DNA of 64,000 nt from a bacterium (GCA_965218795.1 OZ244653.1:3840001-3904000); one strand, 5' to 3'; numbered from the stretch's first letter, positions 4,876 to 64,000 are shown. Numbers and translations are program-made. Notes: generated by a model from the letters alone, not told the origin.

Positions 4876-5292
4876 ATGAATCAGAGCGGGCGCCAAGAAC
4901 TTTTCACCATTCGGATAGTGGCTGAAATGCTGGAGGTTCATCAGCAAACCCTGCGGATCTACGAACGCGAAGGGTTGATCACGCCTGAGCGGACCCCCGG
5001 GAATACCCGGATGTACTCCCGCCAGGATATCGAACGTCTGAAGACCATTTTGAACTTGACCCGGGAGCTGGGGGTCAATCTGGCGGGCGTCCAGGTCATC
5101 CTCAACCTCATCGGGCGGATCGAGGAGCAGCAGGGGCGTATGGAAGAAATGAAGGAGTTCATCCGCCAGGAGATGTGGGTCATCCTGAAGGAAAAGTACG
5201 GGCAGGGAGAACACGGAGAAACCTCGACCTCCACGGCTCTGACACCGGTGGCCCCCCAGGGGGTCGTGCGATTCCAAGGGGGACGCCGCTGA
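4876..5292 (+). CDS. hspR: MerR-family heat-shock repressor HspR
   Basis: VAEMLEVHQQTLRIYEREGLITPERTPGNTRMYS...LTRELGVNLAGV is the HspR signature; located in the dnaK operon. Confidence 0.9.
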   Translation: MNQSGRQELFTIRIVAEMLEVHQQTLRIYEREGLITPERTPGNTRMYSRQDIERLKTILNLTRELGVNLAGVQVILNLIGRIEEQQGRMEEMKEFIRQEMWVILKEKYGQGEHGETSTSTALTPVAPQGVVRFQGGRR

Positions 5293-54437: not shown

Positions 54438-57400
54438 GTGCCCGGCCAGTTATTCACTCATTATTTTCTCGCCGACGGCATAAAGGACACGGACGAGTGG
54501 CGGGAGTCCGCCGGCCGGCCGGAGGCGTTCGCCGCGTTCAGGGACGGTGTTCTTTCCCGTTACGAGGCCCTCCGCGGGTTTCGCGACCCCAACGAAGCCG
54601 TTACCGAGCAGGAGCTGATCCGTCCGGTTCTGGAGCTCCTTGGATGGGCCGACTACCTGCCCCAGCAGGGCGCGGCGCGGAACGAGGACATCCCCGATCA
54701 CCTCCTGTTCCCCGACGCCGGCTCCAAGGAACGCGCCGCCGCGAAACGGAACGCCAGCGATCGCTATCCGGATGCATCGGTGGTCGAGGAGAGCAAGCGG
54801 TTCGGTCTGCCTTTGGACTCCCGCGACAAGAAGGACGAGGCTCCGGCCGGTACGCCCCACGGCCAGATCCTCAGGTATCTGGGGACGGCCGAGACCGTTT
54901 CGGACGGGCGGATTCGATGGGGGATCCTGACCAACGGCCGCGCGTGGCGTCTCTATGACCACCGCGCCCGGCCCCGCGCCGCCGGCTATTTCGAGGCCGA
55001 CCTGGCGGACATCCTCCAGCCCGGCGGGGAAGACGCCCTGCGCGCGTTCCACCTGCTCTTCCGCCGCGAGTCCTTCGCGCCCCGGCAGGGCGCCGCGGCC
55101 ACCTTCCTGGAAGCCGCGATCGCCGAGGGCCGGCGCTACGAGGAGCAGGTCGCGCAGGACCTTTCGGGCGTGGTCTTCGAGCGCGTCTTCCCGCGCCTCG
55201 TGCAGGCCCTTGCGGACGCAACGGAGGAAAGCCTGCCGAAAATCCGGGAAGCCGCCCTGATTTTCCTGTATCGACTGCTCTTCGCGCTCTACGCCGAGGA
55301 CCGGGGCCTGCTGCCCGTCAACGATTCGCGTTACGACGACTACGGCCTGCGGAAGCGGGTGCGGGACGACGTTGCCCGCAGGATGGCGGATCAGGACGTC
55401 TTTTCGACTCACGCCTCCAGCTACTACGACCACCTGATGACGCTCTTCAGGCTCATCGACAAGGGCGACGATTCCATCGGCCTGCCGCCCTACAACGGCG
55501 GCCTGTTCGCGCCCGAAACCGCTGCGCTGCTGGAGAAGGTCCGCCTGGCCGACGCGGAGATCGCCCCAATCGTCTACGACCTGAGCCACAGCAGGGGCCC
55601 GCGCGGGGAGCGCCGCTTCGTCAACTACCGCGACATGTCCGTCCAGCAGCTCGGCTCGATCTACGAGCGCCTCCTGGAGCGCGAGCCGGTCCGCCATGAC
55701 GACGGCGCAATCACCATCCGTCCCAATTCCTCCGCCCGCAGGGACAGCGGCAGCTTCTACACCTCCCAGGAGCTGGTCGACCTCATCGTCGAGCGGACCC
55801 TCAAGCCCTTGGCGGAGGAGCGTCTCGCGGCGTTCGAAGCCGGGGCCGCCGCGCTCAAGAGCGACCGCCGGCCAAAGGCCGAGCGAAAAGCCGAGCTTCT
55901 CGAGCTGGACCCGGCCGAGGCGGTCTTGAACCTGAAGGTCCTGGACCCGGCCATGGGAAGCGGCCACTTCCTGGTCACGGCCGTGGACTTCCTGTCCGAC
56001 TACGTCGCCGATCTGATCGAGTACGTCCCCGCGGTCCCGGATTGGCTCGACGGCGGCTACGCTTCGCCGCTGGTGGAGCGCGCGGCCTCCATTCGCAGAG
56101 ACATCCTCCGGCGGGCCGAGGCGTCGGGCTGGGCGGTGGACGAAGCCCAGCTGACCGACCAGGCCGTCATCCGCCGGATGGTGCTCAAGCGGTGCATCTA
56201 CGGGGTGGACAAGAACCCGCTGACCGTCGAGCTGGCCAAGGTGTCGCTGTGGCTCCACAGCTTCACCGTGGGCGCGCCGCTCTCGTTCCTGGACCATCAC
56301 CTGCGCTGCGGCGACGCTCTGGTCGGCCTCCGGGTGCCGGAGGCGTTGGGCGACTTGCGGCGGCTGGCTGAACTGTTTCTCGGCAGCGCCATCGCCGGGG
56401 CGGAGGCCGCGGCCCAGGGCATGCAGCGCATCGAGGAGATGTCCGACGCCGACGTGGCCGAGGTGCGGGAGTCCGCCGCGCTGTTCCGGGGCGTCGAGGA
56501 CACGACCGCGGACCTGCGCGGCCTGCTCGACTTCCTGTGCGGGCTTCGCTGGCTCGCCGCGGGGATGAACCGGAGAGACCGCGCCGCCTTCGAGACCCCC
56601 CTGCTCGATACCATCGACCGGCAGCCCGAGAGCGCGTACAAACTCCTGGTAAAAGGCCCGGACGCCGTCGGTCCCGAACACCTTGGTGAACAGGACGCCT
56701 CCCGGCGGCGGTTCAAAGAGTTGTGGGATGACGCCAAGTCCATTGCCGACCGCGAGGGCTTCCTGCACTGGGAGGCCGCCTTCCCGGGGGTGTGGCGCGG
56801 GTGGCAGAACGTTCGTCCGGAAGGCGGCTTCGACGCCGTGATCGGCAACCCGCCCTGGGACCGGATCAAGCTTCAGGAGGTGGAGTGGTTCGAGACCCGC
56901 GCTCCCGAGCTCGCCCGCGCACCGACCGCGGCCGCGCGGACCGCCGGCATTCAGCGACTGCGAGACCGGGGAGCGCCCCTGGCCGCCGAGTTCGACGCGG
57001 CCAAGGAGCGGGCGGACAAGCTCGGCCAATTGATTCGCGCGTCCGGCCACTATCCCCTGCTGGGGGGAGGCGACATCAACCTGTATTCGCTGTTCGTGGA
57101 GCGGGCCATGGGCCTGATCAGGCCCGACGGCTTCGTGGGCCTGCTCACGCCGTCCGGCATCTACGCCGACCTGACCGCGGCCCGGTTTTTCAAGTCCGTC
57201 TCCACGGGCGGGCGCGTCGCCGGCCTGTTCGATTTCGAGAACAGGCGTCTTGAAACCGGCCTGCCGCCCTTTTTCCCTGACGTGGATTCAAGGTTCAAGT
57301 TCTGCGCCCTCATCTTCGGCGGCGAGAAAAGGACGTTCGACCGGACCCAGTGCGCCTTCTTCCTCCACGATACCGGCGCCATCAATGACCCGGAGCGCTG

Positions 57401-58181
57401 CTTCCCTCTGTCTCCCGCAGACTTCGCCCGCGTGAACCCGAACACCGGCACCGCTCCGATTTTCCGCGCGCGGCGGGACGCGGAGATCACTCGCCGCATC
57501 TATGAGCGGCATCCGGTGCTGGTGGATCGATCCAGCGGCGAGGAGCGCCGGGCTTGGCCGGTGAAGTACGTGCGCATGTTCGATATGACCAACGACTCCC
57601 ACCTGTTCCGTACCGCGGAGCAGCTCGAAGCCGAGGGCTTCTACTCCGTCGAGGGCAACCGCTGGAAGAAGGGCGAAGAGCTGTACCTGCCGTTATATCA
57701 GGGGCGGATGATCTGGCACTTCGATCATCGAGCCAGCTCTGTAAGGGTCAATCCCGATAACGTGCACAATCCATACCTGAGCGAGGCGGTCACAGAGGCG
57801 CAACATGCGGACCCTGATTTCCTTCCCCAAACGCAGTATTGGGTGCCAGCCCAAGATGTGGAGGAGGCTTTGCCCCAAAGTCGCGGGTACGCGTTGGGGT
57901 TTCGCGATATTACCAATCCTACGAACATGAGAACCATGGTCGCCTCAATAGTTCCTTGGGCCGGTTATGGAAACACAGTCCCTCTACTTGTTGGAGCCGA
58001 TGGCATGGCCGCCACCTGTCTCGTTGCGAATCTGAATGCAATGTGTGTGGACTTCGTTGCTAGACAGAAGGCTCAAGGCACACATCTGAACTGGTACATT
58101 GTCGAACAACAAGTTGCATTGACGATCAGAGGTTCGAGAGGGGTTCTCCAAGCCGGAGAGCCGGGTAGTGTCCTAATTTGA
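54438..58181 (+). CDS. Type IIG (Eco57I-like) fused restriction endonuclease/N6-adenine methyltransferase, probably 3'-truncated
   Basis: PD...ESK nuclease, ILTNG..WRLY, YNGGLF, LGSIYE.LL, DPAMGSGHF, IGNPPW; family-like sequence stops at HLNWYIVEQ (~58110). Confidence 0.88.
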   Translation: MPGQLFTHYFLADGIKDTDEWRESAGRPEAFAAFRDGVLSRYEALRGFRDPNEAVTEQELIRPVLELLGWADYLPQQGAARNEDIPDHLLFPDAGSKERAAAKRNASDRYPDASVVEESKRFGLPLDSRDKKDEAPAGTPHGQILRYLGTAETVSDGRIRWGILTNGRAWRLYDHRARPRAAGYFEADLADILQPGGEDALRAFHLLFRRESFAPRQGAAATFLEAAIAEGRRYEEQVAQDLSGVVFERVFPRLVQALADATEESLPKIREAALIFLYRLLFALYAEDRGLLPVNDSRYDDYGLRKRVRDDVARRMADQDVFSTHASSYYDHLMTLFRLIDKGDDSIGLPPYNGGLFAPETAALLEKVRLADAEIAPIVYDLSHSRGPRGERRFVNYRDMSVQQLGSIYERLLEREPVRHDDGAITIRPNSSARRDSGSFYTSQELVDLIVERTLKPLAEERLAAFEAGAAALKSDRRPKAERKAELLELDPAEAVLNLKVLDPAMGSGHFLVTAVDFLSDYVADLIEYVPAVPDWLDGGYASPLVERAASIRRDILRRAEASGWAVDEAQLTDQAVIRRMVLKRCIYGVDKNPLTVELAKVSLWLHSFTVGAPLSFLDHHLRCGDALVGLRVPEALGDLRRLAELFLGSAIAGAEAAAQGMQRIEEMSDADVAEVRESAALFRGVEDTTADLRGLLDFLCGLRWLAAGMNRRDRAAFETPLLDTIDRQPESAYKLLVKGPDAVGPEHLGEQDASRRRFKELWDDAKSIADREGFLHWEAAFPGVWRGWQNVRPEGGFDAVIGNPPWDRIKLQEVEWFETRAPELARAPTAAARTAGIQRLRDRGAPLAAEFDAAKERADKLGQLIRASGHYPLLGGGDINLYSLFVERAMGLIRPDGFVGLLTPSGIYADLTAARFFKSVSTGGRVAGLFDFENRRLETGLPPFFPDVDSRFKFCALIFGGEKRTFDRTQCAFFLHDTGAINDPERCFPLSPADFARVNPNTGTAPIFRARRDAEITRRIYERHPVLVDRSSGEERRAWPVKYVRMFDMTNDSHLFRTAEQLEAEGFYSVEGNRWKKGEELYLPLYQGRMIWHFDHRASSVRVNPDNVHNPYLSEAVTEAQHADPDFLPQTQYWVPAQDVEEALPQSRGYALGFRDITNPTNMRTMVASIVPWAGYGNTVPLLVGADGMAATCLVANLNAMCVDFVARQKAQGTHLNWYIVEQQVALTIRGSRGVLQAGEPGSVLI

Positions 58182-58387
58182 AAGAACCAGCCCAGGTTGG
58201 ACCTTACGTTGGATGGGTAATACATTCACCTTTCGGACTCCCTTGATTTCCCGATTGCAAGGATAGTACCGAAGGGTGTAACTTATGACTTAGTGGGACT
58301 ATCGTTTCGGTTCCTCGAATCGGGCGGTGAACTTGGGAACCCTGAGACTTGGCTGAGTGGAAGGGTTTCCATCTTTAAGATTTCGGG

Positions 58388-58458
58388 TGGTGGAGGTGGG
58401 GGGAATCGAACCCCCGGGGCGAGCCTTCCAAACTGCGACCCCGCAACCTGCCACCCCC
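58388..58458 (-). ncRNA. 71-nt tRNA-like RNA (tmRNA/Ala-type acceptor, T-arm, encoded CCA)
   Basis: GGGGGTG/CACCTCC acceptor with G3-U70, discriminator A, CCA; T-arm GGGGG-TTCGATT-CCCCC; no canonical D or anticodon arm; no tag ORF. Confidence 0.75.
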
Positions 58459-58464
58459 CTTTAT

Positions 58465-58501
58465 GGACCCCGGAGGCGTTCCCGCTTCCGGGGTTCTTTT
58501 T
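58465..58501 (+). terminator. Rho-independent terminator (also the leader hairpin of the minus-strand RNA)
   Basis: 14-bp stem GGACCCCGGAGGCG-TTCC-CGCTTCCGGGGTTC followed by T5. Confidence 0.75.
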
Positions 58502-58530
58502 AATTTACGGCCCCGGGAACATCCTGTCAA
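58502..58530 (-). promoter_or_regulatory. sigma70 promoter for the tRNA-like RNA
   Basis: TTGACA-17 nt-TAAATT on the minus strand. Confidence 0.7.
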
Positions 58531-58572
58531 TATTTATCTCGTAATTTATCTCGGATAAAACTGAATTATGTC

Positions 58573-58601
58573 TTGATTATATCAACACTCCGGTATATAT
58601 T
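58573..58601 (+). promoter_or_regulatory. sigma70 promoter for the cassette ORFs
   Basis: TTGATT-17 nt-TATATT; -35 lies inside the palindrome TTGAT-TAT-ATCAA. Confidence 0.6.
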
Positions 58602-58644
58602 TATTGGAGCTACAGCAGGAATCCAGGCAACAAAAGAGGAGAAC

Positions 58645-59445
58645 ATGACAATGACCGATGAAACCTCAATAGATAACGCCAAAGCAGAGACCACCAAGGG
58701 AAAGCGGGACAGGAGCCCTTCCTATCCGTTTATCTCGCTCAAGGAAGCCCTTGAGAAGGCAAAGAAATTTGCAGGCCAATATAAACGTCATCAAGCCAGA
58801 GTTTCAAATGCTGTGCGCGTTTGGGGCTATTCACCCAAGAGTAGTGGAGGGATTCAAACGATAGCGGCTCTGAAAGCTTTTGGCCTTCTAAAAGTCCAAG
58901 GCAGTGGGGATGACCGCAAGGTTGAACTAACGGCACTTGCATGGCGGATTCTTGAGGCAAATCAGGAATCCACACGGAGAGAGGCAATTTCGGAATCGGC
59001 TCTAAAACCCTCAGTTATCTCAGAATATCGAGGAAAGTGGGGGGCGGAACGACCGCCGGATGCCGAATGCCTAGACCACCTGATTTTTGAGAGGGATTTC
59101 AACAAAGACTCAGCAAGGCGTTTCCTGAAGATATATGATGACACCATTTCCTACGGAAATTTGACTGAATCTGATATATATACACTGGGTGAAGATCAAA
59201 ATAATGGTGGTGAATCTGGTACAGACGATAAACCGCAAACCGTGAAAGAGAGACAGTGGCGAAAGGAATTTGTATGGCCCCTTTCAGATGGAACAACTGC
59301 TGAATTGGTAATTGACGGTGTCCGTCCGGGAATGGATGAGATCGAGATTCTGAAAGCGAACTTTGATGTTGCCAAGAAGGTTCTGGAAAAAATCGCCAAG
59401 CACCCACCAGAAGGTGGGTCGGACGCCGAGGCTCCCCAAGAATGA
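58645..59445 (+). CDS. Hypothetical protein, probable winged-helix N-terminal domain
   Basis: GAGGAG RBS; RSPSYP.ISL.EA...WGY...SSG..TIAALKAFGLL..G...V.LT pattern is wHTH-like; low GC. Confidence 0.75.
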   Translation: MTMTDETSIDNAKAETTKGKRDRSPSYPFISLKEALEKAKKFAGQYKRHQARVSNAVRVWGYSPKSSGGIQTIAALKAFGLLKVQGSGDDRKVELTALAWRILEANQESTRREAISESALKPSVISEYRGKWGAERPPDAECLDHLIFERDFNKDSARRFLKIYDDTISYGNLTESDIYTLGEDQNNGGESGTDDKPQTVKERQWRKEFVWPLSDGTTAELVIDGVRPGMDEIEILKANFDVAKKVLEKIAKHPPEGGSDAEAPQE

Positions 59446-59768
59446 CCGCCGATGTTCTTGTCCGGATGGCCCACGCCCGTCTTATGGGTTTAAAGGAAAG
59501 CCTTGATCAAAGAAAGGCTGCCAATCCCACGACGCTCGCAACCAAGGAATTTATTGATGACTACCATGACATCCTTAAGGATCTTGAAAGTCTCGAAAGT
59601 CCCAAAGTTGAATTGAAAAGATTCAGAATTCCCGACTCTGCGACTCAATCCTATGAGGATTCCATGTGGTGTGACATCGATTTTATGACTTCCAAACTTG
59701 GCGGTTTACTTAACCTATTCACGGTATCCCAGGATAAAACCAAGATCGGTTTCCTCGACCGAGCCTAA
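59442..59768 (+). CDS. Hypothetical protein (108 aa)
   Basis: ATGA overlap with the upstream ORF; stop 12 bp before the right TIR; protein-like composition. Confidence 0.7.
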   Translation: MTADVLVRMAHARLMGLKESLDQRKAANPTTLATKEFIDDYHDILKDLESLESPKVELKRFRIPDSATQSYEDSMWCDIDFMTSKLGGLLNLFTVSQDKTKIGFLDRA

Positions 59769-60134
59769 TCGCATAGAAACCGAATTAGAACACTACCGAG
59801 CGCCTTGGATTCGCTCGTCCCCATCGGAACAAAGCAGGCCGCGGACTCGCGATCCTGGCGGGTCCCGACGAGGGCGGGAAGTCCGCCCCCGGCGAATCGC
59901 CGCGCGCGTTCTCAGAACCCGCGGGGCGATTCGAGCGTCAACGAGCGTGAGAGAAACCCCAGGGATTTGTCGATTACCCTGCAAAACAACATGCCAAACA
60001 GTCACCGGATCAACCTTTCACCTTTTCCTTGTCGGATATATAATGAATTGAACATCAATGGGATATGAGCGTTTTTCCATGTCGGATTCTTTGTCAGATA
60101 GATCGTCATGTAATTCGCCGAACAGGGAGCGGAA

Positions 60135-61328
60135 ATGGACTGGAAACGATTCGATTTTGCATACCGTCTGGACAGGTCGGACCACGGGGACGCCTTGCTC
60201 TCCATCGAAACCTCCAAAGGAGTGGCTTTGAATCTGGTCCTTCCTCCCGACTGGAAGGAAAGCCTGGATAAACTCAACCGGATCCGCGCCGTTCATGGCA
60301 CCACGGCCCTGGAAGGAAATCCCCTCTCCGAGGCCGAAGTGTCGCAACAAATGGACATTCAAGAGCAATCCGCAGAACCTTCATATGCCGCTAGGCCCAG
60401 CAGAGAGCAGATTCAGATCAGGAACGCCGGGGCCGCGCAGGCATGGGTCCAAAAACGATTCAAGCCCGGAAGCGACCCCTTCGCGCTTTCCGATATTTTG
60501 CGCATGCACCGAATGATTACGGAGGACGCGGACATAACCGACAATACACCCGGAAAGCCGAGGGCCTTCGGGGTTCAGGTAGGAAGCCCGGAACTGGGGG
60601 GCGTTCACAGAGGCGCGCCGCATGAGCGGTTGCCCGAGCTCATGGGAAAATACATCGAATTTCTGCGATCGGGGAAAATGGCTTCCGAACACCCCGTAAT
60701 CCGGGCATTATTGGCTCATTTTTTCCTGGTGACCATTCACCCGTTCGGCGATGGGAATGGAAGAACGTCCCGGTTGGTGGAAGCCGGAATACTGTTTCAG
60801 GGAGGGTACAACATACACGGGTTTTATGGGTTGTCCAATTATTTCTACCGCCATGACCTCCAATACAAGACCTTGCTTCAGAAATGCCGGGGAAAACAGC
60901 CTTTTGACGTTACGCCGTTCATTGATTTCGGGTTACAGGGATTCGTGGAAGAATTAAAGGGGATCAACAACTTCATCAAGACAAAGCTGAACCGGGTCGT
61001 CTATCGGTCGATGCTGGTCCGCGCTCGCAACCAGAAGGTAGGAGAGCGCCGCCGCCTCGTCAATGAAAGGGAATATAATCTGCTTGATTTTTTGATCTCG
61101 GAAACAGAGCCGCTCGATCCGTTTTCCGAACAGCCCTCAAGGAAAATCACCCTCTCCGAACTGCTGGAAGCGTCATATATCCGGGAGGCCTATAAAAATG
61201 TCACCACGAGAACGTTCGTAAGAGAGTTGTTAAGGCTCTCGGAGTTCGGTTTCATCAAATTTTCAGCGGACGCGGGAACGGAAGATCTGGTTATCGAAAT
61301 GGACTTTGACGCCATAGGCAAATACTGA
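60135..61328 (+). CDS. Fic family protein
   Basis: Canonical HPFGDGNGRTSR; TTALEGN; probable C-terminal wHTH. Confidence 0.93.
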   Translation: MDWKRFDFAYRLDRSDHGDALLSIETSKGVALNLVLPPDWKESLDKLNRIRAVHGTTALEGNPLSEAEVSQQMDIQEQSAEPSYAARPSREQIQIRNAGAAQAWVQKRFKPGSDPFALSDILRMHRMITEDADITDNTPGKPRAFGVQVGSPELGGVHRGAPHERLPELMGKYIEFLRSGKMASEHPVIRALLAHFFLVTIHPFGDGNGRTSRLVEAGILFQGGYNIHGFYGLSNYFYRHDLQYKTLLQKCRGKQPFDVTPFIDFGLQGFVEELKGINNFIKTKLNRVVYRSMLVRARNQKVGERRRLVNEREYNLLDFLISETEPLDPFSEQPSRKITLSELLEASYIREAYKNVTTRTFVRELLRLSEFGFIKFSADAGTEDLVIEMDFDAIGKY

Positions 61329-63785: not shown

Positions 63786-64000
63786 ATGAAACTGTCCAGC
63801 CGGATCAAGCCGATCAGTTACCTCAAGGCCCACGCCGCTGAGATCGTGCGCACGCTTGGGGACCGGCGGGAACCCTTGATCATCACCCAGAACGGCGAAG
63901 CCAAGGTGGTCATGCAGGATATCGACAGCTACGAGCAGACGCAGGAGACCGTTGCGCTGCTCAAGATCCTCGCGCTGGGCAGCCGCCGGATCGAAGCGGG
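63786..64000 (+). CDS. Phd/YefM antitoxin, 3'-truncated by the window edge
   Basis: IKPISYLKAHAAEIV...PLIITQNGEAKVV.QD..SYE..QET.ALLKILALG; AAGGAGGTGA RBS; not in the ORF track. Confidence 0.93.
   Translation, partial: MKLSSRIKPISYLKAHAAEIVRTLGDRREPLIITQNGEAKVVMQDIDSYEQTQETVALLKILALGSRRIEA

Follow-up and report, generated by a model that had tools for sequence, protein, structure and literature searches.

A transposase-less cassette with the ends of IS1-family transporter elements carries a tRNA-like RNA gene divergent from a gene for a predicted winged-helix protein

Transporter insertion sequences (tIS) of the IS1 and IS1595 families, which Siguier, Gagnevin and Chandler are said to have described in 2009, reportedly carry passenger genes and have non-autonomous derivatives. 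The element discussed here lies at positions 58164-59797 of a bacterial DNA stretch of 64,000 nucleotides (GCA_965218795.1 OZ244653.1:3840001-3904000; the whole stretch is called the window) and consists of a gene for a tRNA-like RNA and two overlapping open reading frames (ORF1 and ORF2) between inverted ends, with no transposase gene. It resembles a tIS in its short inverted repeats and the non-transposase genes between its ends, and its group makes an 8-bp target duplication, which in the window is degenerate; each complete relative has one DDE transposase gene (PF03400, or PF12762 with PF12760), and the window copy is very probably a deletion derivative of them. It differs from a tIS in that the passenger is not random cargo: a tRNA-like RNA gene and a putative winged-helix gene, divergently paired, recur across IS1-type and IS1595-type elements.

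Three other described systems are close to parts of this locus. The window RNA shares with transfer-messenger RNA (tmRNA; Rfam RF00023) an acceptor stem with a G3·U70 pair, a D-loop analogue, a T arm and A73-CCA; unlike tmRNA, it has no tag frame and no pseudoknots, it is borne on a transposon beside a normal 361-nt tmRNA, and sister elements have cloverleaf tRNA-likes in the same position. Leader-peptide transcription attenuators control amino-acid operons, and in relatives of the cassette a short ORF containing tandem AGR arginine codons leads into a hairpin and a U-rich stretch, upstream of the tRNA-like domain and the transposase; here the transcript under control would be that of a transposon, and the arrangement is absent from the window copy. 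Toxin-antitoxin pairs are carried by transposons, for example of the Tn3 family. The cassette is like these in its two small overlapping genes, the first with a predicted DNA-binding fold, and in that a sister end flanks a Panacea-type pair; it differs in matching no known toxin or antitoxin family, in that ORF2 is not conserved, and in having the RNA gene as the conserved partner. The lack of an mRNA-like part is in turn a likeness to jakobid mitochondria, for which passages of PMC3590771 describe a reduced tmRNA in which the message part is missing.

No report of a tRNA-like RNA gene, or of one resembling the tRNA-like domain (TLD) of tmRNA, as a component of IS1 or IS1595 elements was found in full-text literature searches, supplements excluded, and such an RNA as a recurrent, position-fixed part of these DDE transposons is apparently undescribed. 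RNA partners have changed the view of other insertion sequence (IS) families, namely IS200/IS605 and, with its bridge RNAs, IS110. A tRNA-shaped RNA would be a further such case, of a different kind and in another IS family. An RNA reduced to a TLD with alanine identity would also be a natural "minimal tmRNA" outside mitochondria and would offer a handle on the role of a message-less tRNA-like domain in a bacterial cell.

Inverted ends, target duplications and transposases

Taken alone, the inverted repeat of the window is within chance. Its 15-nt core is 93% identical in a repeat search, the pair ranks 9th among 61 inverted pairs in 3 kb, and about 0.3 such pairs would be expected by chance on our own estimate. 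What proves the repeat real is its recurrence as the ends of elements at other loci, and not its own strength. The comparison drew on 158 fetched loci (78 from genomes and the best 80 of 154 from metagenomes; L numbers below), and all fetched loci were probed with the left end of the window cassette, allowing at most 3 mismatches in 17. The end was found in the expected orientation in about 25 loci, on the distal side of a transposase gene, downstream of the ORF1 homologue, or both. L039, L046, L197, L200, L120 and L095 have the same end or nearly so, and some 20 more ORF1 loci have related ends.

Five complete elements are flanked by perfect 8-bp duplications (L034, 3221 bp; L085, 3574 bp; L145, 3530 bp; L046, 2608 bp; and L197, 3558 bp), and a sixth element with both ends, L152, has a duplication matching at 7/8 positions. 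All six enclose an ORF1 homologue and, as located by tblastn, an IS1-type transposase, and their ends have 0 to 3 mismatches in 17 to those of the window cassette. The IS1 assignment was made with PF03400 on the L031 member only (36.4 bits versus a cut-off of 24.1) and was carried to the others through BLAST clustering and tblastn. At five IS1-type loci a naive inverted-repeat search came up empty, the ends lying further out and being found only by the window-end probe. The mini element at positions 5103-5134 of L039 consists of the two ends alone, head to head, in 32 bp; with its flanks (5095-5142) it shows a perfect 8-bp duplication, CAACCGAT, and no smaller derivative of this transposon is possible.

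Copies of the end also occur closer to home. A genome of the same family (G004) has a decayed copy, of which the C-terminus of ORF1, a stop-bearing remnant of ORF2 and the right end, CAAATTAGGACACTACC, are left, the end being placed equivalently after the ORF2 remnant; an IS3-like element replaces its left part, and its right flank differs from that of the window. A third copy of the end in the genome of the window itself (G000) is a solo end at C1:1729290, for which no matching right end was found. We note that this end (locus L095, G000:C1:1727790-1730804; locus positions 1501-1517) directly adjoins a partial IS1595 transposase gene (...VEVDETYIGGK...), and that a Panacea (SocA) antitoxin gene with a coupled 188-aa ORF of no known family comes after it.

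Because the same ends bound elements that encode IS1-family transposases, the cassette is assigned to that family, and because no transposase lies between its ends, it is read as a deletion derivative and not as an autonomous IS. We thus hold with high confidence that it is a transposase-deleted tIS of the IS1 family, from a group that makes 8-bp duplications. An earlier note on this DNA, made from the sequence alone, had proposed a transposase-less mobile cassette with an RNA gene and two ORFs, and comparison with the other loci bears this out; the IS1595 affiliation suggested there has to be given up, since the ends belong to IS1-family elements and the IS1595-type carriers of the same module have different, 26-bp ends. 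In L059, perfect 26-bp ends (CGGAAGTATGTACC...) surround a tRNA-like gene, ORF1 and an IS1595 transposase, and in L072, 26-bp ends with 92% identity (CGGAATGATATACTT...) surround an IS1595 transposase, a tRNA-like gene and ORF1. The module of RNA and ORF1 therefore rides in two related transposon families with different ends. As a separate observation, another transporter IS lies at 901-3236 of L103 (G000:C1:4624970-4628392), where 30-bp ends (87%) resembling those of L072 enclose an IS1595 transposase, a cysteine-rich 144-aa ORF and a membrane-like 228-aa ORF.

The window copy itself has decayed. The octamers that flank it (gagagccg and gagcgcct) agree at 6/8 positions, versus 8/8 in the five relatives and the mini element. 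No transposase similarity was detected between its ends, and comparison of the 58181-58387 tail with the IS1 and IS1595 transposases of the loci gave nothing significant (best E 0.027). An intact IS1-type transposase was not found in the genome, which has only broken genes of this type, one with two TGA stops, plus fragments, and the resident IS1595 copies that were examined (L102-L105) bear other ends; the cassette is probably now immobile. The empty site that the earlier note proposed to look for did not turn up in the DNA of 40 relatives, in which the SoFic gene and the methyltransferase gene were found apart and the flanks were never joined, and no joint across the cassette is among those listed for contigs of four runs. 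In run X9, 58470-59753 is uncovered and no contig bridges it.

The tRNA-like RNA in the window and in related loci

The features of the cassette are as follows; its ends, flanking octamers, tRNA-like gene, hairpin, back-to-back promoters and ORFs all lie where the earlier note had placed them.

58156..58163: left copy of the degenerate target-site duplication, gagagccg; 6/8 identical to 59798-59805
58164..58180, plus strand: left terminal inverted repeat, GGTAGTGTCCTAATTTG; 15/17 versus the reverse complement of 59781-59797
58181..58387, minus strand: 3' tail of the RNA unit, at the position of the transposase gene in intact relatives
58203-58189, minus strand: weak terminator-like site in the RNA 3' tail (terminator scan)
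58388..58458, minus strand: 71-nt RNA resembling the TLD of tmRNA (Rfam RF00023, ARAGORN, fold)
58465..58496: G+C-rich 14-bp hairpin (terminator scan), followed on the plus strand by TTTTTAATTT
58530-58502, minus strand: RNA promoter-like site TTGACA-17-TAAATT, sigma-70-like, 10/12
58532..58553: two direct repeats of ATTTATCTCG with a 12-bp period, candidate operator (repeat search)
58573-58601, plus strand: ORF1-ORF2 promoter-like site TTGATT-17-TATATT, sigma-70-like, 9/12
58645..59445, plus strand: ORF1, 266 aa, predicted winged-helix protein, the conserved protein of the module
59442..59768, plus strand: ORF2, 108 aa, with an ATGA overlap with ORF1; stop 12 bp before the right end
59781..59797, minus strand: right terminal inverted repeat, on the plus strand CGAATTAGAACACTACC (repeat search)
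59798..59805: right copy of the degenerate target-site duplication, gagcgcct; 6/8 versus the left copy
54438..58181, plus strand, context: type IIG / DrmMI-like methyltransferase gene, C-terminally truncated (PADLOC, Pfam)

The minus-strand RNA unit runs in the order promoter, hairpin, TLD and a 207-nt tail that reaches the left end. On the plus strand the hairpin at 58465-58496 looks like an intrinsic terminator facing incoming transcription, which is how it had been described before; it doubles, on the minus strand, as the RNA's 5' hairpin, with 6 nt between it and the TLD. ORF1 and ORF2 are both open, the RNA stems are perfect and the promoters are consensus-like. The cassette is a single copy in its genome, and variants about 98.5% and about 93% identical to it occur in contigs of other samples, with the right flank unchanged. 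The lower G+C content that the earlier note had reported is present, and since the low-G+C stretch starts near 57650 and lasts to about 62700, it is wider than the cassette and no marker of it.

The best Rfam match of 58388-58458 is to the tmRNA model RF00023 (49.1 bits versus a gathering score of 47, E 1e-17), in an alignment that takes in both ends of the model, with 22 nt replacing 318 internal model positions. The acceptor stem, GGGGGUG/CACCUCC, includes G1-C72, G2-C71 and G3·U70 and is followed by A73 and an encoded CCA; the D-loop analogue, GCAGGUUGC, aligns to the tmRNA consensus; and the T arm, GGGGG-UUCGAUU-CCCCC, is canonical. In the best fold a short bulged hairpin with a 3-nt loop replaces the mRNA domain, and there is no D stem. 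ARAGORN labels the piece a 71-nt tRNA-Ser(gga) and reports neither a tmRNA nor a tag peptide. However, tRNA-Ser has a long variable arm, which this 71-nt call is without, and the D stem, 5-bp anticodon stem and 7-nt loop of a canonical cloverleaf are not found in the window RNA. The mRNA-like domain with its resume codon, tag frame and pseudoknots is not found either, and because of this the RNA is best described, as far as its sequence and fold indicate, as the tRNA-like domain of a tmRNA without the mRNA part and not as a tmRNA. The earlier idea of a tRNA mimic is thus kept as to tRNA likeness and replaced, on the Rfam match, as to kind. The tmRNA gene of the host is intact and lies 148 kb away on the other strand; over 50 nt, the 3' half of the window RNA is 85% identical to the host tmRNA 3' end. 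The pairs G1-C72, G2-C71 and G3·U70 together with A73 make up the identity set of alanyl-tRNA synthetase (AlaRS), and since the window RNA keeps this set, it would probably be charged by AlaRS once released. A type III toxin-antitoxin RNA, which would consist of tandem repeats immediately before the toxin gene and read in its direction, does not fit: the RNA gene is single and divergent, and the only repeats are the two 10-nt DNA repeats between the promoters.

Similar RNA genes recur beside ORF1 homologues. ARAGORN made 32 tRNA calls in the 158 loci, and 27 of these lie 221-510 nt ahead of the ORF1 match, on the minus strand. A relaxed scan, which asked for an acceptor stem and a T arm, was positive on the minus strand at 32/150 loci versus 7/150 on the plus strand. 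Combined, a tRNA-like gene lies at the same divergent position in about 38 of the 150 ORF1 loci, a total that joins ARAGORN, the relaxed scan and three loci seen in alignments and from which L135 and L184 were dropped by eye as not tRNA-like. The Rfam tRNA model scored above its cut-off in 7 of the 13 loci given to it. The further copies of the ends (L039, the complete elements, G004 and C1:1729290) and this repeated linkage of the RNA to ORF1, though not to the unconserved ORF2, are both in line with the earlier proposal; the contrary outcome, in which neither would exist, is therefore not what is seen.

Four kinds of RNA can be told apart. The first, in IS1-type elements, is a class-I cloverleaf that has U1-A72 and whose 8-nt loop always contains UAC; the second, in IS1595-type elements, has a class-II body with UGG or AGG at the anticodon position; the third, at three loci, has UUA or CUA there; and the fourth comprises D-arm-less, TLD-like forms (L043, L136, L022 and the identical L141, L142 and L147). 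In the 17 IS1-type cloverleaves 91.8% of cells are paired and both sides have changed at 12/21 pairs, and 0 of 500 shuffles match either the paired-cell percentage or the covariation score. The covariation sits in the acceptor stem (6/7 pairs) and the T stem (4/5); the anticodon stem is only 76.8% paired. The five distinct TLD-like sequences do not vary at pairs 1-3 (G-C, G-C, G·U), and their pairs 4-7 change compensatorily, pair 5 being G-C, C-G, A-U or U-A. A73 plus CCA or CC is encoded in several relatives. A hairpin and short spacer before the tRNA-like domain are also present in L043, L072, L077, L059 and the IS1-type loci, a TTGAC box is placed equivalently in aligned relatives, and the RNA of L059 has a terminator of its own. 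In the L043 genome the host tmRNA gene is interrupted by a contig end.

Some individual RNAs deserve mention. Those of the third kind, in L139 and L159 (loop CUUUAAA) and L165 (loop UUCUAAA), are class-II tRNA-likes on transposons that ARAGORN labels "Stop" and "Pyl"; the idea that a suppressor tRNA is needed for reading the transposase was rejected for L165, in which the IS1595 transposase has no in-frame stop. A tRNA or tRNA-like gene lies downstream of ORF1 on the opposite strand in L046 (3239-3313), L037 (5033-5108) and L087 (5219-5308), that of L046 sitting within the element's right end, measuring 75 nt, being called "tRNA-Ser(gct)" and lacking a long variable arm.

The RNA is linked to transposases as well as to ORF1. 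A transposase was present in the fetched flank of 69/158 loci (40 IS1-type, 28 IS1595-type and 1 with both). The upstream flank is 1500 nt or longer at 107 loci. Of these, 28 bear the RNA, and 27 of the 28, all but L077, also have a transposase of the IS1 or IS1595 type; of the 79 RNA-less loci, 31 have one and 48 have none. The relatedness of the loci makes this two-by-two association look stronger than it is. Many ORF1 loci of Acidobacteriota/Thermoanaerobaculia show neither transposase nor RNA.

In the IS1-type relatives the predicted transposase transcript starts with the RNA unit and has the order TTGAC-type promoter, optional leader ORF, hairpin with U-rich stretch, tRNA-like domain, more hairpins and transposase start. 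A leader ORF of the form M-x-R-R, with AGR codons and behind a ribosome-binding site, was counted by regular expression at 34/145 loci and is absent from the window; together with the hairpin it looks like a leader-peptide attenuator. These leader ORFs (for example in L031, L034, L042, L076, L138 and L183, on the minus strand 100-210 nt upstream of the ORF1 match) have about 29 codons, with AGG/AGA codons and an end reading GxAATPIP or similar, and run into the hairpin that precedes the tRNA-like domain.

ORF1, ORF2 and the control region

A word-indexed search gave 57 relatives of ORF1, and a profile search gave 6185 representative clusters at E<=0.001, 2284 of them at E<=1e-30. None of the 57 members has a Pfam family, and no relative was found in the plasmid collection; relatives do occur in cultured strains, for example Methylocella silvestris TVC, Xanthobacter sp. 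V3C-3 and Thiomonas delicata. The AlphaFold2 (AF2) model of ORF1, with a mean predicted local distance difference test (pLDDT) score of 85.7, has a winged-helix at about residues 30-93, a helical domain at 95-179, a disordered linker and a beta-beta-alpha unit at 203-250. Foldseek gave no match to the PDB at E<=0.001, the weak winged-helix matches including MarR/ScoC and the Roquin ROQ domain, and the ESM Atlas gave DUF5343 at 0.89, a lead only. On its model, then, ORF1 appears to be a winged-helix protein of a large unannotated family, and these 6185 clusters now have a genomic context.

ORF2 is a near-orphan and lineage-specific. Its only homologue besides itself has 83% identity, the G004 remnant apart, and no relative was found among the downstream ORFs of the 78 genome loci; several ORF1 loci have no small downstream ORF, and elsewhere such ORFs are variable. 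The ATGA overlap predicts that ORF2 is translationally coupled to ORF1. Its AF2 model, three helices at a pLDDT of 67.8, is of low confidence, and prediction of an ORF1-ORF2 complex scored 0.00 versus a mark of 0.32.

Autoregulation by ORF1 through the repeats between the two promoters is a reasonable prediction. Upstream of ORF1 homologues, whether the RNA is present or not, the motif TTATC/GATAA is enriched about 3.3-fold relative to mononucleotide shuffles. The roughly 93% identical variant in run X8 is without 11 nt at 58541-58553, which is one of the two ATTTATCTCG repeats. The 24 nt at 58609-58632, which directly precede the ribosome-binding site of ORF1, match the core of a repeat (GCAGGAATCCAGGCAAC) of about 100 nt or more that is dispersed over >20 places in G000 (for example L011-L016); the window shares the core only.

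A putative control circuit, its alternatives and the neighboring genes

We tentatively read the module as a regulatory and processing circuit intrinsic to the transposon, of which the window copy, under the same reserve, may be a leftover. The retained core, conserved in this element group, is the divergent pair of a gene for a tRNA-shaped RNA read toward the left end and the gene for the predicted winged-helix ORF1, followed here by ORF2. ORF1 would bind the repeats between the promoters and so set the expression of both arms. Host tRNA enzymes would recognize the tRNA-like domain, with RNase P acting on the 5' side and trimming and CCA formation on the 3' side, and this processing would yield, by cutting one primary transcript, three products (leader, stable tRNA mimic and downstream transposase message), with a regulatory effect on transposition.

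Several points weigh against such a circuit. The window ORFs are intact, the RNA stems are perfect and the RNA promoter scores 10/12, while the ends and the duplication have decayed, and an intact core despite decayed ends hints at a function independent of transposition. Mere processing by RNase P needs no conserved alanine identity set. The RNA does not precede the transposase in IS1595 elements of the L059 type, and a purely cis-acting leader role is therefore not general. ORF1 also stands alone, lacking both RNA and transposase, for example in L061, the one Thermoanaerobaculia locus annotated, where it lies beside siroheme and sulfate-assimilation genes. The counts of RNA and transposase come from related loci, across which no test is fair, and the enrichment of the motif TTATC/GATAA was gauged against mononucleotide shuffles and may reflect AT-rich promoters.

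We consider it unlikely that the RNA is an aminoacylated tRNA mimic acting in trans on host translation and that the module serves for addiction, for stress gating or against host or phage. In that case the TLD type would be charged with alanine and enter stalled ribosomes with SmpB and EF-Tu, offering no resume frame, with ORF1 as repressor, and the anticodon loops of the cloverleaf types would be odd or suppressor-like. In favor of this reading, the AlaRS identity set is kept in 5/5 distinct D-arm-less sequences, in which the rest of the acceptor stem covaries, and A73 with CCA or CC is encoded in several; the D-loop analogue of the window can be aligned to the consensus of tmRNA; the anticodon position reads UUA or CUA in some relatives, or UGG where the body is of class II; and the RNA has its own consensus-like promoter, with its own terminator in L059, and was apparently maintained in the window after loss of the transposase. 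However, in the commonest class, 8-nt loops on an anticodon stem paired at 76.8% argue against decoding, the transposase beside the CUA-type RNA of L165 has no in-frame stop to be read, and the RNA is nearly confined to loci that hold transposases. A broader form of the idea, also doubtful, is that DDE transposons of the IS1/IS1595 group encode aminoacylatable tRNA mimics as effectors under a winged-helix regulator, in many elements behind a leader-peptide attenuator; the mimics would comprise small alanine-type RNAs of the tmRNA-TLD kind, cloverleaves whose anticodon loops are suppressor-like or mismatched, and degenerate forms. If this were so, transposon expression or host survival would be linked through the mimic to the state of translation, competition in ribosome rescue being one example, and the window copy would be a domesticated or addictive remnant kept by the host after the transposase was lost.

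The earlier note saw in the cassette a candidate defense or toxin-antitoxin system in a defense island. That ORF1 and ORF2, with or without the RNA, are undescribed cargo of this sort seems improbable to us. The ATGA overlap and the predicted DNA-binding fold of ORF1 are found in many type II antitoxins, a conserved first gene with variable small ORFs downstream recalls promiscuous antitoxin domains, and elsewhere in the genome the same end precedes the Panacea (SocA) gene and its 188-aa partner. Against this, neither ORF has a significant match in Pfam, NCBIfam or PHROGs, and the PADLOC-DB 2.0 matches are marginal and non-significant (ORF1, E 0.007, to a Type I specificity subunit; ORF2, E 0.032); ORF2 has a single homologue, several ORF1 loci are without a small downstream ORF, and ORF1 stands alone beside housekeeping genes in L061. 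The RNA, moreover, tracks transposases and not defense genes; nothing in the analysis supports the proposed role. The island is there in the form of the truncated methyltransferase gene and the SoFic gene, and it is thin, with no DISARM partners found upstream of the methyltransferase.

We regard it as similarly improbable that the RNA gene and ORFs are functionless leftovers of a dead transposon. Such a relic would account for the lost transposase, ends matching at 15/17 and a duplication at 6/8, for a single-copy cassette in a genome with no intact IS1-type transposase, and for the decaying G004 copy, with its stop in ORF2 and an IS3-type element in place of the left part. It fits poorly with open ORFs, perfect RNA stems and two consensus-like promoters, and with the persistence of the roughly 98.5% and 93% variants in contigs of other samples with the right flank unchanged.

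That the tRNA-like piece is the tmRNA-gene remnant of an island integrated in ssrA, with a chance match as inverted repeat, is a very remote prospect in spite of the 85% identity to the host tmRNA 3' end, a repeat that on its own is within chance and the description of tmRNA genes as common integration sites in passages of PMC11915505, and it is refuted by the intact, distant tmRNA gene on the other strand and by ends that recur elsewhere with perfect 8-bp duplications; the piece also holds the 5' acceptor strand and D-loop analogue besides the 3' half, unlike integration repeats, and similar RNAs are equally placed next to ORF1 homologues in unrelated genomes.

The cassette was not simply inserted into an intact gene, because the methyltransferase reading frame to its left breaks 54 bp before the left end. 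This gene (54438-58181) matches DrmMI (E 1.8e-88) and REase_MTase_IIG (E 1.2e-65) in PADLOC and Eco57I in Pfam, and the left end of the cassette contains its last codons together with the stop. The homologues in L121 and L122 align to residue 1224 (about 58110) and continue for some 130 residues that are absent from the window, and contigs of other organisms in the examined runs diverge likewise at 58110. We note that the last 180 or so codons are in lower-G+C DNA and that DNA similarity to the homologues ends near 57661, protein similarity at 58110. Just downstream of the cassette lies the SoFic-type Fic gene (60135-61328; PADLOC E 9.8e-43), and at the end of the window there is an open ORF (63786-63998) whose N-terminus presumably resembles a Phd/YefM-type antitoxin.

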